This document shows positions 1,354 through 13,789 of a DNA stretch of 64,000 nt, one piece after another; the first letter of the stretch is position 1, and every line of letters begins with the position of its first letter. The stretch comes from Patescibacteria group bacterium. Its GTDB lineage: Bacteria; Patescibacteriota; Patescibacteriia; JBDRGY01. The notes under the pieces are model-generated. The model searched no databases, was not told the origin of the DNA, and saw only the letters and a program-made list of their open reading frames with translations. The position numbers and the translations under genes were made by a program. Location of the stretch: NCBI GenBank assembly GCA_043817315.1, contig JBDRGY010000004.1, forward strand, positions 64,797 to 128,796, written 5' to 3'.

Positions 1354-3006
1354 GTGTCTGAAGTCGATGTTTTGTTAGTCCTGCCCCCGATGTATCAATC
1401 GGGGAGGATCCCTGACTACAATCCCAAAGAGCCGATGGGATTGATGTATCTGGCTGGAGAATTGCGCCAGAATGGCTACAGTGTCGAGATACTCGATGCG
1501 GATCTACTTGCCTTAACAGTGGGCGAGACGCTTAGGCGGATTCTGGAGAAAAGGGCCAGAGTAATCGGTTTTTCAGTGATGCAGAGAGCTTTGCCTTCAG
1601 TAAAGATGTTGGTCGAAGGTTTAGATGATGTAAAACCTCGATCCCACATCAGCTGTGGTGGTTTTACTGCTACGCTAAGTGCCAGGTATATTCTGCAGAG
1701 CATTCCCCAAGTTGACTCAATAGTGTTAGGAGAGGGTGAGCTAACCTTTACTAACCTGGTTAGCCAGTTACTTGAGGGAAAAACCTGGCAGGAGACAACA
1801 GGAATTGCATATCGACATGACGGGGTTGTAATAGTGAACCCTCCTGGCCACAAGCCGGATCTCGATTCTCTAACACGCCCTACCCGTGAACTGCTACCTG
1901 TTTGTTTAGAGAAGACCAACTATGCAACAGTGTTGGCCAGTAGGGGCTGTTACGGAGTTTGCACTTTCTGTTGCAACTGCAGCTTCGAACGATGCTCGTT
2001 AGGTCCGAATTGGAGAGGAAGAAAACCAGGGGATGTAGTCGATGAACTTGAGGCAATACATCGAGATCATGGTGTGAGAGTTTTCAAGTTCAATGACCCC
2101 AATCTTTTCGGGCCTGGAAGTGAAGGGAGACAACATGTAGTCGAGATATGCCAAGATATCATTAGGCGGGGCCTTGGAGGTCTTCACTTGATGGCTTTTT
2201 GCCGCTCTAATGATATCGACGAAGAAATCGTCCGGCTGATGAAAAAAGCGGGATTTGAAAGGCTTCTCATCGGAATCGAAACGATTTCTGCGGACGCTTT
2301 GAGACTGTTCCGCAAGGGCGAGACACCGGAGACTGTTCGCCGAACAATTCAGATTCTACGTGAATCCGACATCGATCTAGTCCCTGGATTCATGATTTTT
2401 AATCCCTATACCACCATCGAAACGCTCAAGCAAGACCTGGCTTTTTTGCATGAGTATGGACACACTCCTACTTTAGCAAAGGCCTTAAGAGTGTTTGATG
2501 GAATTCCTCTACAGGGCATGTTGGAGTCAGAAGGCCGACTCGTATGGAGGAACCCAATTGAGGGATACCATGAGTACTTGGTAAGTCCTGATGTGGCAGC
2601 CATTTATATGGCACTTAAAACCGTTGCCGTGGAGTGGCTCGACACATTCAAGAAGGCTTACCAGGGAGAGCTTTGGGGGATTAAAAAAGCCCCGTCGTTT
2701 AAGGAGCGGCAGGGGTTTGACATCCTGAATCGATTAACCTTCAACTTGGAATCTAGGCTGCTTACGGCCTTTATCACTTGGATGGAGAGTGGCTTTACTC
2801 TCCAGGATATCGTTGGACTAATGACAGATACCCGACGCCGCTTACGATACCTTGAGGATTTTACCTTGATGGCCTCGGACGAAAATCAGCCCGTTCTTTC
2901 CAGTCAGATTCTGTCCTCAAGAGAACTGGCTGGTAAAATTCACACTATCCTAACCCACAAGGTATATCGTACATTTCCTGAACAATACAGATGGAAAGAT
3001 GATTAG
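1354..3006 (+). CDS. B12-binding-domain radical SAM protein
   Basis: 550 aa. The N-terminus resembles a cobalamin-binding domain (VLLVLPP...PMGLMYLAG...ILDADL). It is followed by a CxxxCxxC radical-SAM cluster motif (RGCYGVCTFC). The substrate is unknown. Confidence 0.7.
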   Translation: MSEVDVLLVLPPMYQSGRIPDYNPKEPMGLMYLAGELRQNGYSVEILDADLLALTVGETLRRILEKRARVIGFSVMQRALPSVKMLVEGLDDVKPRSHISCGGFTATLSARYILQSIPQVDSIVLGEGELTFTNLVSQLLEGKTWQETTGIAYRHDGVVIVNPPGHKPDLDSLTRPTRELLPVCLEKTNYATVLASRGCYGVCTFCCNCSFERCSLGPNWRGRKPGDVVDELEAIHRDHGVRVFKFNDPNLFGPGSEGRQHVVEICQDIIRRGLGGLHLMAFCRSNDIDEEIVRLMKKAGFERLLIGIETISADALRLFRKGETPETVRRTIQILRESDIDLVPGFMIFNPYTTIETLKQDLAFLHEYGHTPTLAKALRVFDGIPLQGMLESEGRLVWRNPIEGYHEYLVSPDVAAIYMALKTVAVEWLDTFKKAYQGELWGIKKAPSFKERQGFDILNRLTFNLESRLLTAFITWMESGFTLQDIVGLMTDTRRRLRYLEDFTLMASDENQPVLSSQILSSRELAGKIHTILTHKVYRTFPEQYRWKDD

Positions 3007-3059: not shown

Positions 3060-3614
3060 ATGGAAGACAATATTAAAAAGATCACACAGTACATCTTCTT
3101 AGAATCTAAACCCTGCAAGGCAGACTTGGTATTTATTTTTGGTACTCGCCATAAAGAGGCCCTGAATAAATTTCTGGAACTATATAGTCAAGGTTTGGTC
3201 CAGAAGGTGATTGTTAGTGGAGGCATCAATAAGGTGACTGGTCAGAATGAGGCGGAGGCTATGGCCAGTTTTTTGATTGACAAGGGGGTCCCCAAAGAAG
3301 ATATCATGGTTGAAAATCAATCGAGTAATTCGCTGGAAAACGTTTTACTCTCTAGAAAAATAATTGAAAAAAAGACTAGCTATAGTAACCTTAAAAAAAT
3401 ATTAGTGATTGTTAAGCATTATCATTCCCGAAGAGCCTTGATGACTTTAAAAAAGCATTTTCCTAAAACTGTTAAGTTTATACCAGTTACCTACGAGGTA
3501 TACGGATTTAGCAGAGAAAACTGGTCGACCACAAAATTGGGCAAAGAGAAGGTGATGAGCGAATATCAGAAAGTAAAAGAATACCTCAAGCAAGGCGATT
3601 TGGAAGAATTATAA
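3060..3614 (+). CDS. DUF218 / YdcF(ElyC/SanA)-like protein
   Basis: 184 aa. The pattern VFIFGT.......SGG....G..EAEAMA.FL...GVP...I..E..S.NSLEN matches the DUF218 family. Confidence 0.55.
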   Translation: MEDNIKKITQYIFLESKPCKADLVFIFGTRHKEALNKFLELYSQGLVQKVIVSGGINKVTGQNEAEAMASFLIDKGVPKEDIMVENQSSNSLENVLLSRKIIEKKTSYSNLKKILVIVKHYHSRRALMTLKKHFPKTVKFIPVTYEVYGFSRENWSTTKLGKEKVMSEYQKVKEYLKQGDLEEL

Positions 3615-3641: not shown

Positions 3642-6600
3642 ATGAACAAAAAAATCTGGCTCAAAATTGTGCTGCCCATTGTGGTTGTGGTTATCGTAGC
3701 AGGAGGGGCAGTTTATTATTTTTATTATTACGAGAAACCGGTTGATGAGGAAGAGGAAAAACCGCCTATTGTGGTTGATGTGGTACACGCCGAAGAAAAT
3801 TTCGATTTGGTTCCTGTTGACAAGGACAGCCTGGGCATAGCCAAAGACACTTCTTTTACTCTTACCAGTGAGGCAGAAATTGATAAGTCAAAAGTTAAAG
3901 AAAGTTTAGCCGTGGAGCCAAAAGTAGAGTTTGCTGTCAAAGAGGTTAGCAGCAAAGAATTTGAGATTACTCCAGAAACAGATTTAACTGACAATGAAGT
4001 TTATCAATTTTCCATTACAACGGAGGCAGTAAATGGTGAGGAGGCCCCAACTCTTAGAGAGTACAACTGGGCTTATCAGACCAAAAACCCTATCAAAGTT
4101 TTAAGCACGTTGCCAAGAGACGAAGGCACCTATGTGCCTACCAATTCCGGTGTTGAAGTTACTTTCTCCAACGGAAATTTTAGTAATTTTGAGGATTATT
4201 TTGAAATAAGTCCCAAGACAAATGGCACTTTTGAGAAGCACAAAAGGACGGCTGTTTTTGCTCCCGAGGCCTTACAGCCAGAAACTCTATACACGGTAAC
4301 TGTGAAAGCTGATCTGCCTTTTTCGGGAACCAGCGACCGGTTGGCTGAAGATTACGTCTTCCAATTCGAAACCGAAGACAACGAACAAACTCCACAACAA
4401 GTTACCTATTTATATTTCAATGCCTATTTACATGATTTTAGCGCTTCTGATATTCCGTCCCTGGAAGTCTATTCCTATCCCGATGGCGTAGAGAGAGATT
4501 ATATTGTCTACCAATATGATACTTTTGATGATTTTGCTGATTCGGTAGATCAGTATGCCGAGCTACCCACCTGGGTCAACTACTCCAGACAAGGCTTCAA
4601 CGTTGCTACTGATGGTTTGACCGAGGCGTTGCGTTTTACCGCTGCCCCCCAAGAGGGCGAATACCGAAAATTTGTTGTCTTGCCAGAATCGCTGCGTAAC
4701 GGTTATTACCTGATTGAGACGGAAGTTAACAATAAGAAGGTACAGGCCTGGATTCAGATTAGTGATCAGGCTTCCTATTTGTCGGTCAGCAAAACCCAAA
4801 CTCTGGTTTGGGTTAACGATTTGGTAAATCAAGAACCTTTTGTTGATGTTACCTTGAACCTCTCCGGGGAAACCGAGACTTTCACTACTAATAGTTACGG
4901 CGTGGCTGCCTTTGATACGCCGGATCAACTTGTCGACCAGACCATGGATGCTTCTTATTATTACGTGGCTACTTCGCCGGACGGCTATAAGACAATCCTT
5001 CCGGCCTTTTCTACCACTAGACGCTATTATTCCGGCATCTGGAGTTGGGGAACTGATTCCGATCATTGGGCCTACCTATATGAAGACAAGCCGCTTTATT
5101 TACCGACCGATACCATCAAATTCTGGGGTTTAGCCAAAGCCAGAACCGGAATAGAACAAACGGAAACAGTCACTGTCAGTTTAGCCGGCTACAGTTACCG
5201 AGATTATAACTATAATGCGGTTAGTCTGGCCGAAACAGAAGTAGAGGTTAACGAATATGGCACCTACCTGGGAGAACTGGCCATCAATGACGTTACCCCA
5301 GGTTACTATACTCTCAGAGCTGAAATCGGGGATCGAACGATTTCTTCTACTAGTATATATGTAAAGACCTACACTAAACCGGCTTACTCCATTGATCTGA
5401 CCACTGATAAACAGGTTTATCTGGATGGAGAGACTGGGACTGCCACTATAGCTTCAGAGTTTTTTGAGGGAACTCCAGTTCCCAGCGTGGATATCTCCCA
5501 TAATGTCGGTGGTGAGGGAGAAATTACTACCAACGAATTAGGACAGGCCGCAGTTGATTTTACCGCCCAATACGATTCCAGTTATTGGGCAAGATATGAC
5601 AGCCAATGGCTAAATGCTTCCAGTAAAATGGCAGAAGAAGGAGACATTAGCTCCAGTCTCTATTATGCCGTTTATCCCTCTAATGTTTACATGGATGTGG
5701 AGACATCCCATGCTGATGAACAGGGGAATGTCAACGTGCAGCTTAATTATCTAGACCTGGAAGCGATGAACGATCCTGATTATTCTATCTGGTCCACTCC
5801 AGTTTTAGGGGCAGTGGTTCCCGATATCAATGTCAGCGGTACAATCGTAGAGAAATACTGGGAAAAAGTGGAAACCGGTTCCTATTATGATTTTATTAAT
5901 AAAGTAACCAGGAAAACTTATCGCTACGAAGAACGACAGAATGATGTCGGCAGTTTCTACGGCACCACTGATGCTGGTGGCAGTTATGATTACAATTTTG
6001 ATGTGGCTGATAAGAAATATTACGAGATTACAGTTAATTATACTGATGCTGCAGGCCGAGAGGTAGAAAGAAGAGCTTGGTTAAGCACCGGTTGGTACTT
6101 TAGTTCTTATAGCTCAGAATCACAGATTAACATAAGGATTGTTGGTGATCAGGTCAATTATCAGTTGGGTGATCAAGTTGACGTGGTTCTTTCCCAGGGT
6201 GACCAAACCTTGCCCAGTGGTACTGAACCCAATAACTATCTGTTTTATAAATCCAGCCTGGGTATTAAGGATTATTGGGTGCATGACAGTCCGGAATATT
6301 CCTTTACCTACGACGAGCAGTTGATGCCTAATGCTTATGTTTTCGGGGTAATGTTTGACGGAGCTCATTATGTCACGGCCCAAGAAAAATACGCTTCCAT
6401 AGAATATGATTCATCAGAGAAAAATCTCAATTTTGAGGTTACTACCGATAAAGAAAGATATCTTCCTGGTGACGAGGTGGATATAACAGTGACAGTAACC
6501 GATCAAAATGATGATCCAGTCCGGGCCAAGCTAAATATTAATCTGGTTGATGAAGCCCTGTTCAAATTACGAGAACAGTCGGTAGATACTCTGACTGGAG

Positions 6601-8957
6601 TTTATCAATCGGTCAAAACCGGAATTCTTAGTTCTTACGTTTCTCACGAAAAGCAGGCCCTAGACGCAGTGGGAGCGGAAGGGGGAGGTTGCTTTGTCAA
6701 AGGAACTCCAGTTTTGATGGAGGGCGGTCAATACAAAAACATCGAAGATATTAAGGTAGGAGATACGGTGCTGACCAAAGTAGCAACCTGGAGTGATCGT
6801 TTGGTCCCGTCTCGGGTGAGTAATACCTTTGAACATCTGGTTAACGAGTATCTTTTGATCAATGACCAACTGGAAATTACTCCCAATCATGTTATTTGGG
6901 TCAACGGTCAGTGGCTGCCAGCCTCGATGATTAGCATTGGCGACAGACTACTGAATAAAGACAGCCAAGAATTTGTGGTTAAATCGATAGAAAAAAAGAC
7001 AGGTAGTATTTATGTCTACAACCTTCACACCGAGAAGTATCATACCTTTATCGCTTCCGATATCTATGTGCACAACGATAAAGGGGGCAACATACGAGAA
7101 AATTTTCAGGATACAGCCCTGTTTCAAGAACTGGAGACTGACCGCAACGGAGAAGCCACCGTAGAATTCGATTTGCCGGATAATATCACTTCCTGGCGGG
7201 TAACCACTCAAGCTATTACCCAGGATCTGGAAGCTGGTCATACCAATAAATTAATTCCGGTCTCCTTGCCCTTTTTCGTGGAAACAACCCTGACAGATCA
7301 GTATCTGACCGGGGATCAGCCGATATTGAAGATCAGGTCATTCGGCACAGCTTTATCGTCATCAGATAGTGTCAGTTATCAGGTGGAATGTGATACTTTG
7401 GGTATAGATGAGACGGTATTAGGACAAGCCTTCACTTCATCTTTCTACTCGTTGCCCAGCCTGACAGCGGGCACGCATGAGATCATTGTTTCCGGTGAAT
7501 CGGGCGATAATGAAGATGCTATTAAAAAGACAATAACGGTTGTTGATTCCCATTGGCAGAAACAGGAAGATAGTTATTATTTGCTGGATGAGGGTTTGGA
7601 GATTACTGGTGCGGAGACGGGTCGGACTACACTAGTCTTTACTGACCAAAACCGTGGTTATTTCTACCGGGATCTGCTTAGAATGTCTTGGTACTGGGGT
7701 CATCGGGTAGACCAGAGATATGCCCAAAAAATGGGAATGGAATTATTGAACCAGTATTTTGAGGAGAACTACGAAATACCGGGTTTTGATGGTAATCAGT
7801 ACCAAACTCCAGACGGAGCCATTGGTATCCTGCCTTATGCTGACCATGACTTAGCCTTATCCGGTCATATGGCCCATCTGGCAGCGGCTGAATTTGACCA
7901 AGTAGCTTTGGCTAATTTCTTCTATGCTTATCTGGACGATGCCAACGCTACTTTAGAAGAAGTCAGCCTGGCCCTGTTCGGCCTGGCCAATCTGGATGAA
8001 CCGGTACTCAACCTGATTATTGACCTGCTTACCAATAATGATTTGGCAGACTCACAAAGAATCTATCTGGCTATCGGGTTGGAAAGATTGGGGGCAGGGG
8101 AGCTGGCCCGGGAGATTTATTATGAAATTTTCGATGAATATGGCGAGGAAATGGAACCGTATATTCGCATCATGTTGGGCGAAGACGAAGATGATTACCT
8201 GCAGTATTCTATTCTGATGGCCATCTTAGCCAATCGTCTCAATGCCAGCGAAGAAGAAATGCTGTTTGGCTACGTGCGTGATCACCATCCCACTGATATT
8301 CTGATCAACGTAGAAAAATTGACCTACCTCCAAGAAGCCATTCCCGAGCTATCCGCCGATCCGGTTAGCTTTGATTATCAATATGGTAGCACCAGCGACA
8401 CAGTTACCCTGGAAAAGGGACAGAAATTTTCCTTGCAGCTGACAGCTGATCAATTGTCCGACCTCGAATTTTCCAATATCTCTGGATCAGTAGGATTGGT
8501 TAGTCATTATGCGGTGGCTGTTTCGCCCTCTTCCATAACTCCTGATACCAACCTGACAGTGACTCGAAGCTACTCGTTGGTCGGTGGCGATACCATGAGT
8601 ACCTTTGCTGACGGCGATATCGTCAAGGTAACTATCAAGCCAACAATTGGTGCTAATGCCATTGATGATTACTATCAAGTGACCGATTATCTGCCGGCTG
8701 GCCTGTCGATCTTGACCAGGCCTTATTCCCGCTTAGGTCAGGGCGCCTACGATGCCAGTTATGCCTACAAGATAAACGGGCAAGTGATTAGTTTCAGAAC
8801 TTATAGAGATTCTACTCAAGATGATATTTATTACTATGCCCGTATCCGCACTCTGGGGACCTATAAAGCTGATTCGGTATTGATGCAATCTTATAACGCC
8901 AAAGACAGCCTCAATATCACGGACACGGACACAATCACCCTGCAACAACCTCTCTAA
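3642..8957 (+). CDS. Membrane-anchored alpha-2-macroglobulin-like giant protein with an inserted Hint domain
   Basis: 1771 aa. There is one N-terminal TM helix (IWLKIVLPIVVVVIVAGGAV). The A2M-family signature reads FQDTALFQELETDRNGEATVEFDLPDNITSWRV (compare the canonical F.ET.FW...TD.NG...V.F.LPDSITTWR). The rest is long and Ig/MG-like and beta-rich. I could not find a CGEQ thioester motif. Confidence 0.8.
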   Translation: MNKKIWLKIVLPIVVVVIVAGGAVYYFYYYEKPVDEEEEKPPIVVDVVHAEENFDLVPVDKDSLGIAKDTSFTLTSEAEIDKSKVKESLAVEPKVEFAVKEVSSKEFEITPETDLTDNEVYQFSITTEAVNGEEAPTLREYNWAYQTKNPIKVLSTLPRDEGTYVPTNSGVEVTFSNGNFSNFEDYFEISPKTNGTFEKHKRTAVFAPEALQPETLYTVTVKADLPFSGTSDRLAEDYVFQFETEDNEQTPQQVTYLYFNAYLHDFSASDIPSLEVYSYPDGVERDYIVYQYDTFDDFADSVDQYAELPTWVNYSRQGFNVATDGLTEALRFTAAPQEGEYRKFVVLPESLRNGYYLIETEVNNKKVQAWIQISDQASYLSVSKTQTLVWVNDLVNQEPFVDVTLNLSGETETFTTNSYGVAAFDTPDQLVDQTMDASYYYVATSPDGYKTILPAFSTTRRYYSGIWSWGTDSDHWAYLYEDKPLYLPTDTIKFWGLAKARTGIEQTETVTVSLAGYSYRDYNYNAVSLAETEVEVNEYGTYLGELAINDVTPGYYTLRAEIGDRTISSTSIYVKTYTKPAYSIDLTTDKQVYLDGETGTATIASEFFEGTPVPSVDISHNVGGEGEITTNELGQAAVDFTAQYDSSYWARYDSQWLNASSKMAEEGDISSSLYYAVYPSNVYMDVETSHADEQGNVNVQLNYLDLEAMNDPDYSIWSTPVLGAVVPDINVSGTIVEKYWEKVETGSYYDFINKVTRKTYRYEERQNDVGSFYGTTDAGGSYDYNFDVADKKYYEITVNYTDAAGREVERRAWLSTGWYFSSYSSESQINIRIVGDQVNYQLGDQVDVVLSQGDQTLPSGTEPNNYLFYKSSLGIKDYWVHDSPEYSFTYDEQLMPNAYVFGVMFDGAHYVTAQEKYASIEYDSSEKNLNFEVTTDKERYLPGDEVDITVTVTDQNDDPVRAKLNINLVDEALFKLREQSVDTLTGVYQSVKTGILSSYVSHEKQALDAVGAEGGGCFVKGTPVLMEGGQYKNIEDIKVGDTVLTKVATWSDRLVPSRVSNTFEHLVNEYLLINDQLEITPNHVIWVNGQWLPASMISIGDRLLNKDSQEFVVKSIEKKTGSIYVYNLHTEKYHTFIASDIYVHNDKGGNIRENFQDTALFQELETDRNGEATVEFDLPDNITSWRVTTQAITQDLEAGHTNKLIPVSLPFFVETTLTDQYLTGDQPILKIRSFGTALSSSDSVSYQVECDTLGIDETVLGQAFTSSFYSLPSLTAGTHEIIVSGESGDNEDAIKKTITVVDSHWQKQEDSYYLLDEGLEITGAETGRTTLVFTDQNRGYFYRDLLRMSWYWGHRVDQRYAQKMGMELLNQYFEENYEIPGFDGNQYQTPDGAIGILPYADHDLALSGHMAHLAAAEFDQVALANFFYAYLDDANATLEEVSLALFGLANLDEPVLNLIIDLLTNNDLADSQRIYLAIGLERLGAGELAREIYYEIFDEYGEEMEPYIRIMLGEDEDDYLQYSILMAILANRLNASEEEMLFGYVRDHHPTDILINVEKLTYLQEAIPELSADPVSFDYQYGSTSDTVTLEKGQKFSLQLTADQLSDLEFSNISGSVGLVSHYAVAVSPSSITPDTNLTVTRSYSLVGGDTMSTFADGDIVKVTIKPTIGANAIDDYYQVTDYLPAGLSILTRPYSRLGQGAYDASYAYKINGQVISFRTYRDSTQDDIYYYARIRTLGTYKADSVLMQSYNAKDSLNITDTDTITLQQPL
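6690..7076 (+). other. Hint (intein / bacterial-intein-like) domain embedded in the A2M-like protein
   Basis: 129 aa, in frame. It begins with Cys1 (CFVKGTPVLM), has a block-B TxxH (ITPNHVIW), and ends with block G (YNLHTEKYHTFIASDIYVHN). The +1 residue after the terminal Asn is Asp, which is not a C/S/T nucleophile. Confidence 0.75.
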
Positions 8958-8959
8958 TA

Positions 8960-9829
8960 ATGCCTAAAAGTAACATAATAATCGCTTGCAGTATTTTAGT
9001 TGTTCTGTTTGGAATTGTTTATATTTGGCAGTGGGCAGTAACAAACGAGACCGTAGTTATCAATAATAACCAGATTAACCCCAGCATTTATTCGGCAGTT
9101 GATTTTGCAGCCAGTACAGAGAAATTAACCTTACCGACTCAGTGCTTTCAAGAGTTTCAAGGAGGGATTGTCACTCATCACGATATAGCCAGTTCTCTGG
9201 TCGGAGAGTTTTTTCAATGTATTTCCAAGAGCAATGCTCCCCGGACGATTATCCTGATCGGCCCCAATCATAGCCAGCAAGGGCCCCCGGTTTTGTCAGC
9301 CAGTCGCGATTGGCATACGCCATTTGGGGACTTGGAGCTGGACCGAGACAAAATGGAAGAGCTTCAAGGTTTATATCAAGTGGACGATGAAGCCCTGATT
9401 GCAGATCACAGCATCAGCTTTATGATTCCCTATATAAAGTACTATTTCCCGGAAGCTAAGGTAATTCCGTTGTTGGTCAAATACAGCTACATCAGGTCGG
9501 AAGCCGATAAGGGGATAGCCTTATTGAAGAAAGTAATTGACGAACAGACATTCATTCTGGGCTCCTTGGATTTTTCGCACTACCTGACCAAGAATCAAGC
9601 TGACAAGAATGATAAAATCAGTAAAGAAATTGTAACCAACTTCGATCTGGATGATGTTTATAATCACGCTGATGGCTTCTACGACTGCGCTCCCGGTCTT
9701 TTTATAATTCTTTCTCTGATGCAGGACCTGGAACATAAAAATATAATTGAATTAAACCACGCCAACTCTTTCGATTTTACCGGGAACCCCTACAACACTA
9801 CCAGTTATTTTAGCTGGTTATTTAGCTAG
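8960..9829 (+). CDS. Memo-family (AmmeMemoRadiSam system protein B-like) protein with an N-terminal TM anchor
   Basis: 289 aa. Conserved Memo blocks are present: ILIGPNHS, TPFGDLELD, DHSISFMIPYI, LGSLDFSHY. The start overlaps the A2M stop (TAATAATG). Confidence 0.65.
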   Translation: MPKSNIIIACSILVVLFGIVYIWQWAVTNETVVINNNQINPSIYSAVDFAASTEKLTLPTQCFQEFQGGIVTHHDIASSLVGEFFQCISKSNAPRTIILIGPNHSQQGPPVLSASRDWHTPFGDLELDRDKMEELQGLYQVDDEALIADHSISFMIPYIKYYFPEAKVIPLLVKYSYIRSEADKGIALLKKVIDEQTFILGSLDFSHYLTKNQADKNDKISKEIVTNFDLDDVYNHADGFYDCAPGLFIILSLMQDLEHKNIIELNHANSFDFTGNPYNTTSYFSWLFS

Positions 9830-10089: not shown

Positions 10090-10491
10090 ATGAATCTTAA
10101 CAAGGCTGAAGTAATCGGGAATCTGACGCGGGATCCCCAAATCAAAACTTTGCCCTCGGGTACGCCTATCGCCAATTTTTCGGTGGCTACCAATCGCTTT
10201 TGGACCGATTATAAAACAAAGAAAAAAAGAGAATCAACAGAGTATCATAATATTGTAGCCTGGGGTAAATTAGCAGAAATAATCGGCAAGTATCTTAAAA
10301 AGGGAGGAAAAGTCTATGTGGACGGTCGTCTACAAACAAGATCATGGGAAGATAAGAATAAGAATAAAAGAGAAAGAACAGAAATTGTTGCTGATAACTT
10401 GATTATGTTGGGACATTTAAATAAAAAACCGTCAGAAGATCTAGCCAAGGAAGAAATTGATATCGAAGAAGTAGATATTGAGCAAGCCTAA
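10090..10491 (+). CDS. ssb: single-stranded DNA-binding protein
   Basis: 133 aa. It has an OB-fold SSB N-terminus (MNLNKAEVIGNLTRDPQIKTLPSGTPIANFSVATNRFW...YHNIVAWGKLAEI...VYVDGRLQTRSWEDK) and an acidic C-terminal tail ending DIEEVDIEQA. Confidence 0.85.
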   Translation: MNLNKAEVIGNLTRDPQIKTLPSGTPIANFSVATNRFWTDYKTKKKRESTEYHNIVAWGKLAEIIGKYLKKGGKVYVDGRLQTRSWEDKNKNKRERTEIVADNLIMLGHLNKKPSEDLAKEEIDIEEVDIEQA

Positions 10492-10516: not shown

Positions 10517-10780
10517 TTGGCCAGGATCCCCACAAGAGGCCCTTCGGGTTTAGATAGTATGGAAAAAACGATTCAAATTGGCTCAAAAATCAGAGCAGAA
10601 ATTAACGGGTTAAACAAAGTAATTATCATTGTAGAACAGCAGAACGTTGATCCTGAGAACGGCAAGATTTCTGAATTTTCGCCAGTAGGGGCAGCTCTAA
10701 TTGGGCATGAACAGGGTGATCAGTTCGAAGCAAGATTACCCAGCGGTAAGTACCTTTTTAACATAAAAAGAGTTCTCTAG
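10517..10780 (+). CDS. GreA/GreB C-terminal (FKBP-like) domain protein, stand-alone
   Basis: The motif KISEFSPVGAALIGHEQGDQFE matches the GreA C-terminal consensus IS..SP.G.ALLG...GD.V. The start is either a TTG at 10517 or an ATG at 10559. Confidence 0.6.
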   Translation: MARIPTRGPSGLDSMEKTIQIGSKIRAEINGLNKVIIIVEQQNVDPENGKISEFSPVGAALIGHEQGDQFEARLPSGKYLFNIKRVL

Positions 10781-10975: not shown

Positions 10976-11401
10976 ATGATAGGAGCAATAAAAAATTTCA
11001 AAGATTTAAACGTTTATCAAGATTCATACAAAGCCTCTTTGTTAATCCATAAAGAAATTGTTCCTAATTTACCAAAAGAGGAACAGTACGATTTAACTGA
11101 TCAATTACGCAGGTCAGCCAAGACCATACCCAGATTAATCGCCGAAGATTATGCCAAGAAAGAGCAGGTACATGGTTTTCAAAAATATTTACTGGATGCG
11201 TTTGGCGAAAGTAATGAGACTATAGTATCACTTTCTCATTGTGAAGATTTATATAATGAACATGTCGATACCAAATTGTGCCAACAATTAATTGATATCT
11301 ATGATAAATGTAGTCGTCAATTGTTTAGATTAAGCGAAAGTTGGCAAAGTTTTTCTTATCGACACCAAAAACCAAACCGAAAACGATACGAACTTCCATA
11401 A
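10976..11401 (+). CDS. four-helix-bundle protein (23S rRNA IVS protein / Avd-like family)
   Basis: 141 aa. The N-terminal F.DL.VYQ..Y......H.EIV..LPKEE.Y.L.DQLRRSA..I...IAE fits the TIGR02436 / PF05635 family. Confidence 0.7.
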   Translation: MIGAIKNFKDLNVYQDSYKASLLIHKEIVPNLPKEEQYDLTDQLRRSAKTIPRLIAEDYAKKEQVHGFQKYLLDAFGESNETIVSLSHCEDLYNEHVDTKLCQQLIDIYDKCSRQLFRLSESWQSFSYRHQKPNRKRYELP

Positions 11402-13099: not shown

Positions 13100-13789
13100 A
13101 TGAAAAGGACGATGCTGTTGCTGTTGTGCGTCGTGATTAGTATCACGATGTGTTCACTGGCTTCGGCCACTACGGTGGAAGAGAAAACCTGGGGTACGAT
13201 CAAGGCGTTGTATCGGACAGCTGAAGAAGTTGAGCAGGGTCCGATGTATCGTCCTAGTGCAGCAATTGGAATTGCCTGGCCATTCGGTCGTTGGGATAAT
13301 CCCAATGACTGGGTTGGTTGGCAGGGCGATAGCTACGGAGGAGTATCGGGAAGCTTCTGCGGAGGTCACAGAAATCATACCCATTCGGGAGCCGATCTGA
13401 AAGCCCGAGACCTAAGCAGGAGCGGTTGTAATGGAGTAAGAATCTATGCTGGTTTTACAGGTAAAGTCGTGCAGGTCTATAAGCGGTGTGAAAATAAGAA
13501 AAGTAGTTGCAACGGTGGATACGGCAACACAGTTGTGATCTACGATGTCAATCGCCATGTTGCCATACGTTACTCCCATCTCTCGTATGTAGCTGTTCGT
13601 AAAGGTCAGCGAGTGAGGCGCGGACAGTACCTTGGCAAGGTAGGAAAATCGGGAAATATTACAGGTCCTCATCTCCACCTTGCTGCCTACGAGAACATCG
13701 ACCACTTCGACTCACAGGGATATCCAGTGATTCCAACTCTCTGTGATTCCGAGTGGTACTGTTGTAGGGTATACTTTTACAGCTGGTAG
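13100..13789 (+). CDS. secreted M23 (LytM-type) metallopeptidase
   Basis: 229 aa. It has a signal peptide (MKRTMLLLLCVVISITMCSLASA) and the M23 motifs HTHSGADL and GNITGPHLHL. Confidence 0.75.
   Translation: MKRTMLLLLCVVISITMCSLASATTVEEKTWGTIKALYRTAEEVEQGPMYRPSAAIGIAWPFGRWDNPNDWVGWQGDSYGGVSGSFCGGHRNHTHSGADLKARDLSRSGCNGVRIYAGFTGKVVQVYKRCENKKSSCNGGYGNTVVIYDVNRHVAIRYSHLSYVAVRKGQRVRRGQYLGKVGKSGNITGPHLHLAAYENIDHFDSQGYPVIPTLCDSEWYCCRVYFYSW

Follow-up and report, generated by a model that had tools for sequence, protein, structure and literature searches.

Activation of alpha-2-macroglobulins (A2Ms) and of complement proteins is understood to need an external protease that cuts one loop of the molecule. 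In complement C3, C4 and C5 a folded domain of ~9-14 kDa lies within MG6 at the position equivalent to the bait, and its proteolytic removal activates the protein. The bacterial A2Ms (ECAM/YfhM, Salmonella A2M and YfaS/MagD) consist of a ring of macroglobulin (MG) domains with an A2M signature and a module of CUB, TED-like and C-terminal MG domains; they are attached to the membrane by a lipoprotein anchor, and their disordered bait lies inside MG8, the equivalent of the eukaryotic MG6. Members of the ECAM/YfhM type possess a thioester, and thioester-less bacterial A2Ms, of the YfaS/MagD type, are already known.

Type-A bacterial intein-like (BIL) domains are Hint domains defined by a C-terminal His-Asn without a nucleophile at the following (+1) position; they are able to splice by aminolysis, with cleavage products predominating (PMC4031507, which summarises the BIL work of Amitai 2003 and Dassa 2004). 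They are housed in variable regions of secreted or surface bacterial proteins, and their occurrence is sporadic. Two BIL domains of known structure bear on what follows: C. thermocellum BIL4 (2LWY), a type-A Hint of ~130 aa with Cys1, TxxH and His-Asn that lacks both a +1 nucleophile and an endonuclease, and BIL2 of Tetrahymena thermophila BUBL1 (6Y75/6TMM), a eukaryotic, cytoplasmic domain located between ubiquitin-like domains, in which a Gly-Gly precedes Cys1 and the thioester formed on it is attacked and resolved by the epsilon-amine of a lysine (PMC8616854).

The locus described here, part of a 64-kb window (the whole stretch of DNA that was analysed) from a Patescibacteria genome, brings the two kinds of molecule together: an A2M-like protein of 1771 aa contains a Hint domain between the two domains that border the bait region (Table 1). 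By examining domain order, catalytic residues and the distribution of the Hint among relatives, we hypothesize, with a probability of roughly 0.7, that it is a type-A BIL nested in the bait loop, that it excises itself, and that it is inherited vertically and unrelated to the status of the CxEQ thioester motif. The preliminary description of this DNA had known of no earlier account of such an architecture, and no paper describing an A2M with a Hint at the bait position was found in the literature searched, which did not cover the original BIL host list (Amitai 2003).

Table 1. Features of the A2M-like gene and its downstream neighbour (nucleotide positions in the window; residues of the 1771-aa protein in brackets).
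Feature	Position	Strand	Basis
Gene for a membrane-anchored (predicted), thioester-less A2M-like protein with nested Hint (1771 aa)	3642..8957	+	ORF list, translation, Pfam
N-terminal hydrophobic helix, putative signal anchor (aa 5-28)	3654..3725	+	Kyte-Doolittle; predicted topology
Bacterial Ig-like domain, Big_5 (aa 148-244)	4083..4373	+	Pfam PF13205, E 4.4e-11
MG2-type macroglobulin domain (aa 477-572)	5070..5357	+	Pfam PF01835, E 3.2e-6, below gathering score
A2M_BRD, MG5/MG6-equivalent part preceding the bait site (aa 832-976)	6135..6569	+	Pfam PF07703, E 1.5e-10
Bait-loop N-terminal flexible linker, ending in A-E-x-G-G (aa 998-1016)	6633..6689	+	pLDDT <50 (model residues 298-316)
Hint domain, type-A BIL, 129 aa (aa 1017-1145)	6690..7076	+	Pfam PT-HINT, NCBIfam intein_Cterm
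C-flank D1146-K1147-G-G, non-nucleophilic +1, Lys at +2	7077..7088	+	Alignment; pLDDT <50
A2M domain, second half of MG6-equivalent and start of MG7 (aa 1158-1229)	7113..7328	+	Pfam PF00207, E 3.7e-11
Helical TED-like domain without thioester (aa ~1338-1569)	7653..8348	+	AlphaFold model, hhalign
C-terminal MG domain, bMG10-like (aa 1638-1743)	8553..8870	+	Pfam PF17973, E 3.2e-5
Membrane-anchored Memo-like protein, downstream	8960..9829	+	Pfam PF01875, E 2e-27

That the gene encodes an A2M-superfamily protein with a complete Hint at the bait position was proposed in the preliminary description, and this proposal holds: the ORF and the Pfam matches agree with it, the domain order with the Hint between A2M_BRD and A2M is confirmed, and the quoted strings lie in place in the translation (LVDEALFKLREQ, CFVKGTP and FQDTALF... 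at aa 968, 1017 and 1155, respectively, where aa 1017 corresponds to nt 6690; VHN closes at aa 1145, or nt 7076). The sequence is identical to an NCBI protein from a metagenome-assembled genome, 'alpha-2-macroglobulin family protein [Patescibacteria group bacterium]'. It belongs to the A2M/thioester-containing protein superfamily, with an MG ring and an A2M signature domain: the A2M_BRD match spans positions 2-140 of the 140 in the profile, the A2M domain bears the FxDTA...LPDNITSWR signature and aligns with vertebrate A2M residues 711-801, bMG3 is also among the Pfam matches, and the MG2 assignment is backed by matches across the whole A2M-like family. An AlphaFold model covering aa 701-1771, built from a 43-sequence alignment, finds its best Foldseek matches in the A2Ms of E. 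coli (ECAM, 5a42, E 1.6e-38) and Salmonella (4u48, E 9.8e-38); A2ML1, CD109, C3, C4, C5 and TEP1 come next. In this model the TED-like region is all-helical with beta domains on either side (pLDDT >90), and for the C-terminal MG domain the profile alignment to ECAM covers residues 1305-1602; the model and an hhalign match to thioester-bearing A2Ms (613 columns, E 4e-66) identify a module of CUB, TED and C-terminal MG domains. The sequence supports anchoring in the membrane through the N-terminal helix, which contains the top Kyte-Doolittle 19-residue windows of the whole protein (2.5) and is its single strong N-terminal hydrophobic segment; it has no lipobox Cys, the entire protein containing only C1017 and C1250. 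Compared with the described bacterial A2Ms, the host is a member of the Patescibacteria and a transmembrane helix takes the place of the lipoprotein anchor, while Big_5 domains are added, a Memo-like partner replaces pbpC, an invariant Arg replaces the thioester Cys, and a folded Hint replaces the disordered bait.

The Hint matches the Pfam PT-HINT/Hint model with E 1.1e-9 (score 39.1 bits, cut-off 27.7), and contains the blocks Cys1017, T1022, T1080-P-N-H1083, H1134-T1135 and Y-V-H1144-N1145. Its best sequence match in the PDB is 2LWY, the C. thermocellum 'bacterial intein-like domain' (E 3e-6), and in Foldseek a model of the Hint alone (AlphaFold, pLDDT 90.2) has as its top matches BIL2 6y75 (TM 0.83, E 4e-11) and 2lwy (rmsd 1.9 A), with Hedgehog structures placed below BILs and inteins; among solved BIL domains, with which a comparison had been suggested earlier, these two are the nearest. 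In fold size, Cys1 and TxxH, terminal His-Asn and the absence of Cys, Ser or Thr at +1, it is a domain of the type-A BIL kind, and its length is constant (128-129 aa) among relatives, with no endonuclease domain. The blocks are degenerate in none of the 39 Hint-bearing members of its own family, where C1017, F1018, T1022, H1083 and Y-V-H-N1145 are invariant and T1080 is kept in 38, and the catalytic residues are likewise retained in 32 genome loci and in 120/120 proteins of a sister subfamily. At deep divergence the Hint is better conserved (45% identity) than the host (34%). A purely selfish mini-intein would also conserve its catalytic residues, so that conservation alone is no proof of a function for the host.

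Other members of the Hint superfamily fit less well. Canonical splicing is not possible with Asp1146 at +1, as the preliminary description had noted, and a canonical (class 1) intein is rejected on this ground, there being no Cys or Thr at +1 in 159 A2M Hints and Ser in 2; the site in a variable loop, the co-divergence of the Hints with their hosts, their grouping in one clade and the lack of an endonuclease speak against it as well. PT-HINT of polymorphic toxins and Hog belong to the same superfamily, and PT-HINT is the best Pfam model, but here the Hint is followed by a 626-aa A2M body (A2M, CUB, TED-like and MG domains) instead of a C-terminal toxin, and the gene downstream is Memo-like, where a pretoxin Hint would have an immunity gene next to it; a pretoxin Hint is rejected accordingly. 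A Hedgehog/Hog domain is rejected too, since a sterol-recognition region is missing, the His-Asn that is absent in Hog is present, and MG6/MG7 sequence comes directly after the Hint. Some homologs are named 'polymorphic toxin-type HINT domain-containing protein' by NCBI.

Alignment and model together support the placement of the Hint at the bait-region site, the insertion point within the MG6-equivalent (bacterial MG8). It falls between the two Pfam models that border the bait region; profile alignment maps its site to the bait interval of ECAM and human A2M (PMC4498604, PMC9181621), and GNIRENFQDTALF, directly C-terminal of the Hint, aligns with the post-bait ...TLRKNFSETFLW of a vertebrate A2M. 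Three segments of the AlphaFold model fall below pLDDT 50, of which aa 818-824 is an unrelated loop and aa 998-1016 and 1146-1149 border the Hint. Hint-less relatives have, in the same column, a short Gly-rich loop or a variable loop of 25-40 aa; the insertion point is thus conserved, and is filled here by the Hint with flexible linkers of ~19 aa and ~4 aa. The arrangement resembles, by analogy and not by homology, the anaphylatoxin (ANA) domain of C3/C4/C5, a folded insert at the same point; the folds are unrelated, and ANA is removed by an external convertase, whereas the Hint would, judging from its residues, bring its own cleavage chemistry.

Both flanks are conserved. In the N-flank all 39 Hint-bearing members have G1015, and 37 of them have G1016 (Hint-less relatives keep A-E-x-G-G too); Gly1016 is the predicted acyl donor. 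In the C-flank the +1 residue varies among the 39 (D18/E11/N3/Q3/S2/I1/G1; never Cys or Thr) and in the sister subfamily (Q/D/E/G/A/N), and position +2 is occupied by Lys in 34/39 members of the own family and 120/120 of the sister subfamily (154/159). Hint-less relatives have virtually no Lys in the aligned loop, which makes the +2 Lys Hint-specific; in two members of the own family (P0019 and P0026) no Lys occurs up to +3, and the lysine therefore cannot be universally required. Unlike the described type-A BILs, then, this one has an A2M for its host, the activation switch (the bait loop) for its site, and a conserved Lys at +2. With BIL2 it shares the Gly-Gly before Cys1 and has a Lys soon after the Asn, but its exteins are the halves of an MG domain in an extracytoplasmic A2M; attack by lysine is reported for BIL2 (PMC8616854), and for the A2M Hint would follow by analogy.

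The protein has no CxEQ motif anywhere in its 1771 residues. Profile-profile alignment to thioester-bearing bacterial A2Ms (hhalign probability 100%, E 4e-66, 613 columns) places R1355-V-D-Q (nt 7704-7715) at the CxEQ position, upholding the earlier statement that CGEQ is missing; the internal thioester is also absent from some accepted members of the A2M superfamily. From that absence the preliminary description had gone on to suggest that the Hint stands in for the lost CGEQ chemistry, and had proposed a survey of Hint insertion against CGEQ loss in homologs; the survey reveals no link between the two, and the suggestion is not supported. The own-family comparison set comprised 39 Hint-bearing and 65 Hint-less members, and in 39/39 and 62/65 of these, respectively, Arg stands in place of the thioester Cys; in a sister Patescibacteria A2M subfamily all of the 120 best proteins combine the same Hint, at the identical site, with an intact CxEQ. 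Because the Hint-less relatives are equally thioester-less and the sister proteins keep both, the presence of the Hint is, on these sequences, independent of CxEQ status, and the comparison corrects what was an appealing idea. A CLEQ string occurs in one relative (P0021), as a string match and not as a residue aligned to the TED position.

Hint homologs were gathered by exhaustive HMMER search and their taxonomy taken from a scan of genome contigs, which revealed at least 569 relatives of the A2M-like family among species-representative genomes. When the best 80 loci in these genomes were examined, 32 had a Hint, which occurs across many Patescibacteria classes. Trees built by neighbour joining from p-distances (over 129 columns in the case of the Hint, and with weak deep nodes) group the A2M Hints in one clade, in which the Hints of each subfamily are monophyletic; a check of GC and base composition for recent horizontal acquisition detected no anomaly, and the 64-kb window holds no further copy of the Hint. 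The same Hint clade is plentiful in other Hint-rich proteins, tandem arrays included. The nearest relatives of the Hint-less P0029 and of the Hint-less P0045 are Hint-bearing, which indicates at least two clean losses of the Hint with the host gene retained. Taken together, the sequences indicate that the Hint is a lineage-wide, vertically inherited trait of Patescibacteria A2Ms with a single origin; type-A BILs are sporadic, whereas this one is fixed and passed on vertically across a whole bacterial radiation.

These comparisons show what the Hint is, where it lies, how it is conserved and distributed, and that it does not depend on the thioester; the chemical steps that follow, and what becomes of the Hint thioester, are inferred. 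We propose that the Hint would react after export and folding of the protein. Cys1017 would attack the carbonyl of Gly1016 in an N-S acyl shift assisted by T1080-x-x-H1083, giving a Gly1016~Cys1017 thioester, and Asn1145 would cyclise with the help of His1144, cutting the Asn1145-Asp1146 bond. With Asp at +1 no branched-ester intermediate could form, so that an amine would resolve the thioester instead, be it the alpha-amine freed on Asp1146 or the side-chain epsilon-amine of Lys1147, and the halves would be re-joined by a peptide or isopeptide bond; the product would be a Hint-free loop (...AEGGG/DKGG...) close to that of Hint-less relatives. Resolution by an amine is probable because Lys at +2 is a mark of the Hint-bearing proteins and BIL2 provides a precedent (PMC8616854). 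Alternatively, water would resolve the thioester, and two chains would remain, kept in contact by the MG6-like domain that they share. Bait cleavage discharges the thioester in known A2Ms (PMC4498604), and CxEQ is intact throughout the sister subfamily, so that a bait loop permanently cut by its own Hint would squander that thioester; constitutive simple cleavage is on this reasoning disfavoured. BILs studied in vitro cleave more than they splice (PMC4031507), and re-ligation is hence not assured.

What such a reaction would do for the host can be read in several ways. The Hint may be a neutral passenger that adds nothing: a degenerate mini-intein or BIL, inserted in the distant past into a single A2M gene of the Patescibacteria, which persists since imprecise deletion breaks the protein and whose catalytic residues are kept just for its own removal. 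This we hold to be possible but doubtful: its clean presence or absence at one site with flanks common to Hint-less relatives, at least two clean losses survived by the host gene, a constant size without endonuclease domain or compositional anomaly, and the abundance of its clade in other Hint-rich proteins, tandem arrays among them, are all expected of such an element, yet the Hint occupies a variable surface loop and not the conserved functional core typical of inteins, it is fixed in 120/120 best sister proteins and across many Patescibacteria classes, the C-flank with its +2 Lys has co-evolved with it, and it is more conserved than its host. A function for the host is implied if the Hint is instead a built-in activation trigger (a 'self-convertase'), whose conditional excision, upon contact or a change in redox state or metal, would untie the loop and drive the change from the native to the compact form; the Hint would then do the protease's job on the bait, or the convertase's on C3 (removal of C3a, at the same insertion point), exposing the TED thioester in the sister subfamily and simply closing the trap in the thioester-less protein. 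The Hint does sit in the loop whose cleavage switches on ECAM and human A2M (PMC4498604, PMC9181621), its relative BIL2 is regulated by zinc (PMC8616854), and its union with an intact CxEQ in all 120 sister proteins means that the two chemistries must be compatible. The fragment model is also closer to protease-activated ECAM (TM 0.44-0.46) than to native ECAM and Salmonella A2M (0.24-0.26), which argues weakly in the same direction; the activated-like shape may be an artefact of fragment modelling. We nonetheless consider a trigger unlikely, given that the sequence bears no sign of regulated processing, that the Hint-less sister lineages P0029 and P0045 apparently function without it, and that the Hint flanks give a normal loop once ligated.

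More improbable again is covalent capture in trans, in which an external nucleophile (for instance a protease lysine or a molecule of the host-cell surface) would attack the Gly1016~Cys1017 thioester, leaving the target tied to the membrane-anchored N-terminal fragment; this is the form in which the earlier idea of a reactive Hint survives. BIL2, so similar in fold, works in trans and without ATP: by an isopeptide bond it transfers its N-extein, a ubiquitin-like domain that ends in Gly-Gly, onto lysines of other proteins (PMC8616854); the N-extein here likewise ends in a conserved Gly-Gly, on a surface protein of a lineage thought to live on host cells (PMC8080830). Against this, an intramolecular Lys as near to the scissile bond as two residues would as a rule beat external amines, the protein has no evident substrate-binding module, the Hint is cleanly lost in some lineages, and its lack of correlation with thioester loss means that it does not replace CxEQ. 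A wider conception, to which we give little credence at present, is that Patescibacteria A2Ms are self-activating, complement-like surface molecules with the BIL as a built-in convertase or conjugase: as convertase, its conditional excision may fire the conformational switch and arm the TED thioester in the sister subfamily; as conjugase, it may pass the Gly-Gly thioester to a lysine, either as an isopeptide staple in cis or in trans onto a protease or host surface.

Under the preferred reading of a self-excising BIL, two A2M subfamilies of the Patescibacteria (CPR) hold an intact, predicted self-cleaving and self-ligating domain in their activation loop. If the Hint is more than a passenger, these would be the first members of the A2M family with an autonomous chemistry of activation or conjugation, and BIL domains, whose biology remains mostly obscure, would gain a natural role; this would bear on how ultra-small episymbiotic bacteria resist or attach to their hosts, and a convertase or conjugase in particular would give episymbionts a protease-independent means of covalent trapping or attachment. 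Were it a passenger, the Hint would still offer an unusually clear example of an intein-like element that has become fixed in a protein outside the cytoplasm, and a source of compact BILs for a non-nucleophilic +1 residue, useful in protein engineering.

The neighbouring genes were compared across 84 related loci. An upstream DUF218 gene was rejected as a conserved partner (0/84). The downstream Memo-like protein, which has an N-terminal hydrophobic helix, is encoded by an abutting ORF on the same strand in 51 of the 84 (from Patescibacteria, Chloroflexota and Bacillota), and the Memo-like gene is a conserved downstream partner of A2M-like genes whether or not these carry a Hint.

A Hint domain within alpha-2-macroglobulin (A2M)-like proteins is an arrangement that is robustly real and widespread; one mechanistic reading of it is refuted by the data presented here, and several others may apply. 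The open reading frame and its Pfam domain order (see table) bear out the preliminary description of a thioester-less A2M-like protein with a Hint insert, and the sequence strings quoted there are found at the positions it gave. The CxEQ motif is absent from the whole 1771-aa protein, which has two cysteines in total (C1017 and C1250) and no lipobox cysteine. The catalytic blocks of the Hint domain are likewise as described: it starts at Cys1017 (nt 6690), includes T1080-P-N-H1083, and ends in H1144-N1145 (nt 7076), followed by Asp1146. The domain is also matched by the Pfam models Hom_end_hint, Vint, Intein_splicing and Hint.

Features of the A2M-like protein (aa) and of the genes around it (nt)
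Feature	Position	Strand	Evidence or remark
EPSP-synthase-family gene, probably murA	59-1324
B12-binding radical SAM gene	1354-3006
DUF218	3060-3614
A2M-like ORF, 1771 codons	3642-8957	+	ORF and translation
Hydrophobic segment	aa 5-28		sole candidate membrane anchor
Big_5	aa 148-244		Pfam
bMG3			Pfam, weak match
MG2	aa 477-572		Pfam
A2M_BRD	aa 832-976		Pfam, E 1.5e-10
Hint domain	aa 1017-1145		PT-HINT, E 1.1e-9, 39.1 bits (gathering score 27.7)
Intein C-terminal splicing region	aa 1124-1145		NCBIfam
A2M	aa 1158-1229		Pfam, E 3.7e-11
bMG10	aa 1638-1743		Pfam
Memo-like gene (PF01875)	8960-9829	+	start lies 3 nt past the A2M-like stop codon; has a membrane helix of its own at the N-terminus
SSB	10090-10491
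GreA-like C-terminal domain	10517-10780
23S rRNA intervening-sequence protein	10976-11401
M23 peptidase	13100-13789

The nearest solved sequence relative of the Hint domain is 2LWY, a 'bacterial intein-like domain' of C. thermocellum (E 3e-6). An AlphaFold model of the domain alone (pLDDT 90.2) superposes best on the bacterial intein-like (BIL) domain BIL2 of Tetrahymena BUBL1 (6y75; TM 0.83, E 4e-11) and on 2LWY (rmsd 1.9 A), with mini-inteins and Hedgehog scoring lower. By definition, a type-A BIL domain ends in His-Asn and has no nucleophile at +1 (PMC4031507), and the Hint domain shows every sequence feature of this type. Other assignments were rejected: canonical intein on account of the +1 residue, Asp1146, which is no nucleophile; Hedgehog type because the sterol-recognition region is missing; and pretoxin Hint because no toxin domain follows.

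The A2M fold and the loss of its thioester are supported by structure and by profiles. An AlphaFold model of aa 701-1771, built from 43 homologs (mean pLDDT 86.8), has as its best solved matches ECAM of E. coli (5a42, E 1.6e-38) and the A2M of Salmonella (4u48, E 9.8e-38), followed by A2ML1, CD109, C3, C4, C5 and TEP1, and contains an all-helical, TED-like domain at aa ~1338-1569. When a profile of the C-terminal 626 residues of the protein's own family (F1) was compared with a profile of thioester-bearing bacterial A2Ms, the two aligned over 613 columns (probability 100%, E 4e-66) with R1355-V-D-Q opposite C-x-E-Q, so that the TED fold is retained and the thioester cysteine is replaced by arginine. 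The modelled arrangement scores higher against protease-activated ECAM (TM 0.46 for 4ziq and 0.44 for 4rtd), active CD109 and induced human A2M (0.36-0.39) than against native forms (0.22-0.26); this activated-like arrangement may simply reflect that a fragment lacking MG1-4 was modelled.

The residues that follow the Hint domain (H-N-DKGG-NIRENFQDTALF) align to ...SNGHVETLRKNFSETFLW of vertebrate A2M and, in a profile search, to human A2M from residue ~722, the point at which region IV (Glu729-Arg732) of the human bait-region domain leads back into MG6. This human domain is described as inserted between MG6 strands 4 and 5 (PMC9181621). Profile alignment places the Hint domain between ECAM chain positions 880 and 936, an interval that, with the chain-to-UniProt offset estimated, is expected to span the disordered bait (Arg923-Leu942), which is 'found within MG8' (PMC4498604). 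Since the bait region is itself an insertion within MG6/MG8, the objection that the Hint domain lies inside an MG domain fails, and the bait-region position originally proposed stands. Both Hint flanks (aa 998-1016 and 1146-1149) have pLDDT <50, as does an unrelated loop (aa 818-824).

The search for homologs yielded 118 proteins, headed by an identical NCBI MAG protein from 'Patescibacteria group bacterium'; 104 clear F1 members were aligned by MAFFT. The Hint domain is present in 39 and absent from 65, a clean presence or absence at a single column. Its length is constant (128-129 aa), and C1017, F1018, T1022, H1083, Y1142, V1143, H1144 and N1145 are invariant in all 39 (T1080 in 38); at deep divergence it is more conserved than its host (~45% versus ~34% identity). 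The +1 residue is D in 18, E in 11, N and Q in 3 each, S in 2, and I and G in 1 each, never Cys or Thr, and Lys occupies +2 in 34/39. Hint-bearing and Hint-less members share the flanks A-E-x-G-G and G-G-x-R-x-x-F-x-D, the Hint-less loop reading ...AERGG-EGG-xRxDF.... Exactly at the Hint column (aa 1016/1146), some Hint-less Firmicutes members carry a variable low-complexity stretch of 25-40 residues (homologs P0054, P0059, P0060, P0063-66, P0069, P0071, P0072, P0079-82 and P0086) that, from its sequence, looks like a conventional bait region; others have just a ~10-residue Gly-rich loop.

It had been proposed that the Hint domain stands in for the lost thioester, a reading that the homologs refute. 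Within F1, arginine occupies the thioester position in 39/39 Hint-bearing and 62/65 Hint-less members, so the loss characterises the family as a whole rather than its Hint-bearing subset. (The Hint-less member P0021 has a CLEQ tetrapeptide at aa 1535, the sole CxEQ among the 104.) With the Hint domain alone as query, HMMER run exhaustively against 1.84 billion representatives gave 7086 homologs, the best 150 of which include many single-Hint A2M proteins, 18 of them with CxEQ ~222 residues past the Hint domain. One of these, P0165, has the Pfam order MG2; A2M_BRD 675-813; PT-HINT 854-982; A2M 996-1078; TED_complement 1186-1280; bMG10, and as a query it recovered 428 relatives at E <= 1e-20, named from Woykebacteria, Daviesbacteria, Gottesmanbacteria, Roizmanbacteria, Paceibacterota, Portnoybacteria and others. 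This sister family (P0165, P0268-P0383) is the second and larger of the Patescibacteria A2M subfamilies, and its TED domain is recognisable. All 120 relatives examined carry the Hint domain (CF...HN) with Lys at +2 and a non-nucleophilic +1 residue (Q70/D27/E19/G2/A1/N1), and all 120 keep a thioester motif 220-239 residues downstream (CVEQ 99, CIEQ 14, CTEQ 6, CSEQ 1; YPYGCVEQT in the 3 with context shown). The flanks of the 11 proteins for which they are shown, ...AE.GG/Hint/[DQEA]K[GS]..R..F.D.AYWNP...LPDNLTTW, match those of F1. With the same domain at the same site beside an intact thioester, the suggested survey for co-occurrence of Hint insertion with CGEQ loss is negative.

Neighbour-joining of 244 Hint domains places all 159 from A2Ms in one clade, with the F1 (39/39) and sister (120/120) domains each monophyletic and 85 tandem-array Hints outside, although this tree and the host tree are distance-based and their deep nodes short. 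Close host pairs carry equally close Hint domains (0.78 versus 0.79, 0.57 versus 0.60), and Hint GC (0.421) is within the range of the gene (0.443 +/- 0.022). Together these results point to a single ancient insertion, or else to a single early copying from one paralog to another, with vertical inheritance since then. Hint-less proteins are nested among Hint-bearing ones in the host tree: P0029 is nearest to the Hint-bearing P0007 (52% identity, against 46-47% between P0007 and its Hint-bearing relatives), and P0045 is closest to P0030-32. Both are best read as clean losses, leaving a poly-Gly loop in P0029 and a short Gly-rich one in P0045, and the host protein can evidently dispense with the insert. 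The nearest non-A2M relatives are tandem-array proteins (P0121-P0144, P0158, P0229 etc.) of 2-10, possibly up to 17, Hints with linkers of 2-5 residues (...VHN/KGG/CF..., at times ...HNKGC/F...), some also with MopE-like, Big_9, cadherin-like or CBM domains.

At least 569 relatives turned up when one genome per species was scanned, and 32 of the best 80 loci carry the Hint domain. By record title, Hint-bearing loci belong to lineages of Patescibacteria, labelled Parcubacteria, Peregrinibacteria, Peribacteria, Saccharibacteria (L025, L031), Magasanikiibacteriota, Moraniibacteriota, Falkowbacteria, Kerfeldbacteria and Uhrbacteria, and seven others 'uncultured Gammaproteobacteria' (6) or 'uncultured Flavobacteriales' (1); loci without the domain belong to Dehalococcoidia, Limnocylindria, Clostridia, Peptococcaceae, Actinomycetota and, in a few cases, Patescibacteria. 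The junctions G/CF... and [YF]VHN/[DEQSA][KEG] occur in 31/32, the remaining locus, L016, having its C-terminal junction masked with unknown residues; the junctions of L032 are unreadable. F1 genes occur in eight TPA co-assembly MAG records labelled 'uncultured Gammaproteobacteria' (7) or 'uncultured Flavobacteriales' (1) (L005, L010, L012, L014, L024, L027, L056, L063); these labels are probably wrong, since 7/8 carry a Hint domain that is elsewhere confined to Patescibacteria.

Thioester-less and thioester-bearing bacterial A2Ms and type-A BIL domains are known separately; in C3 the anaphylatoxin occupies the same insertion point as the bait. A catalytic BIL domain at that point is caught by automatic annotation alone, under names such as 'alpha-2-macroglobulin family protein', 'polymorphic toxin-type HINT domain-containing protein' and 'Intein C-terminal splicing domain-containing protein', the last also the UniRef name of one P0165 relative. 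A full-text literature search for macroglobulin or A2M with Hint, BIL, intein or PT-HINT, with most subscription journals outside its scope, found nothing relevant. Work on the CPR organism Vampirococcus mentions large A2M-domain membrane proteins as a possible defence against host proteases, nothing more (PMC8080830), and an mBio CPR paper has 'macroglobulin' in its reference list only (PMC13059738).

The sequence argues for strong selection on two steps, the acyl shift at the N-terminus (through Cys1, TxxH and the Gly at -1) and the cyclisation of Asn (through His-Asn), and against any possibility of transesterification to +1. An acyl shift at Cys1017 is predicted to give a Gly1016 thioester and Asn1145 to cyclise; for the fate of that thioester we favour self-excision of the Hint domain with amine-mediated re-joining of the flanks, as a peptide or a Lys isopeptide. 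This reading is suggested by the re-joined flanks, which would reproduce the loop of Hint-less relatives, by the +2 Lys, essentially confined to Hint-bearing A2Ms (154/159; tandem-array relatives have Lys at +1), and by the CxEQ retained in the sister family. In BIL2 a Gly-Gly thioester is resolved by a Lys epsilon-amine to an isopeptide, a reaction that can also proceed in trans (PMC8616854), and type-A BILs can splice when, once Asn has cyclised, an amine attacks the N-terminal thioester, with cleavage products predominating (PMC4031507).

Alternatively, the thioester would be hydrolysed to leave a two-chain protein, its halves held by the split MG6-like domain. In known A2Ms a bait cut untethers the bait and discharges the thioester (PMC4498604), and the sister family, with CxEQ in all 120 proteins, could not afford constitutive, unligated self-cleavage. 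A regulated form of the favoured excision chemistry might also serve as an activation trigger. The domain may be a tolerated, intein-like passenger, as its clean losses and flanks identical to those of Hint-less relatives would suggest, or may benefit its host, a view favoured by its high conservation, the co-evolution of its flanks and the fact that it is fixed throughout a radiation.

The A2M-like and Memo-like genes are a conserved two-gene unit: an abutting same-strand Memo-like ORF is present at 51 of 84 related loci (L001-L084; 21/34 Hint-bearing, 30/50 Hint-less), in Patescibacteria, Chloroflexota and Bacillota. The pairing differs from that of E. coli yfhM, whose partner is pbpC. The Memo-like ORFs of L001 and L002 also encode a fused PGA_cap domain, and ORFs of similar length (~1.7 kb) occur at several other loci. 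Of the 39 ORFs >=200 aa in the window (1-64000), 38 lie on the + strand; the 64 kb yielded no tRNA gene.
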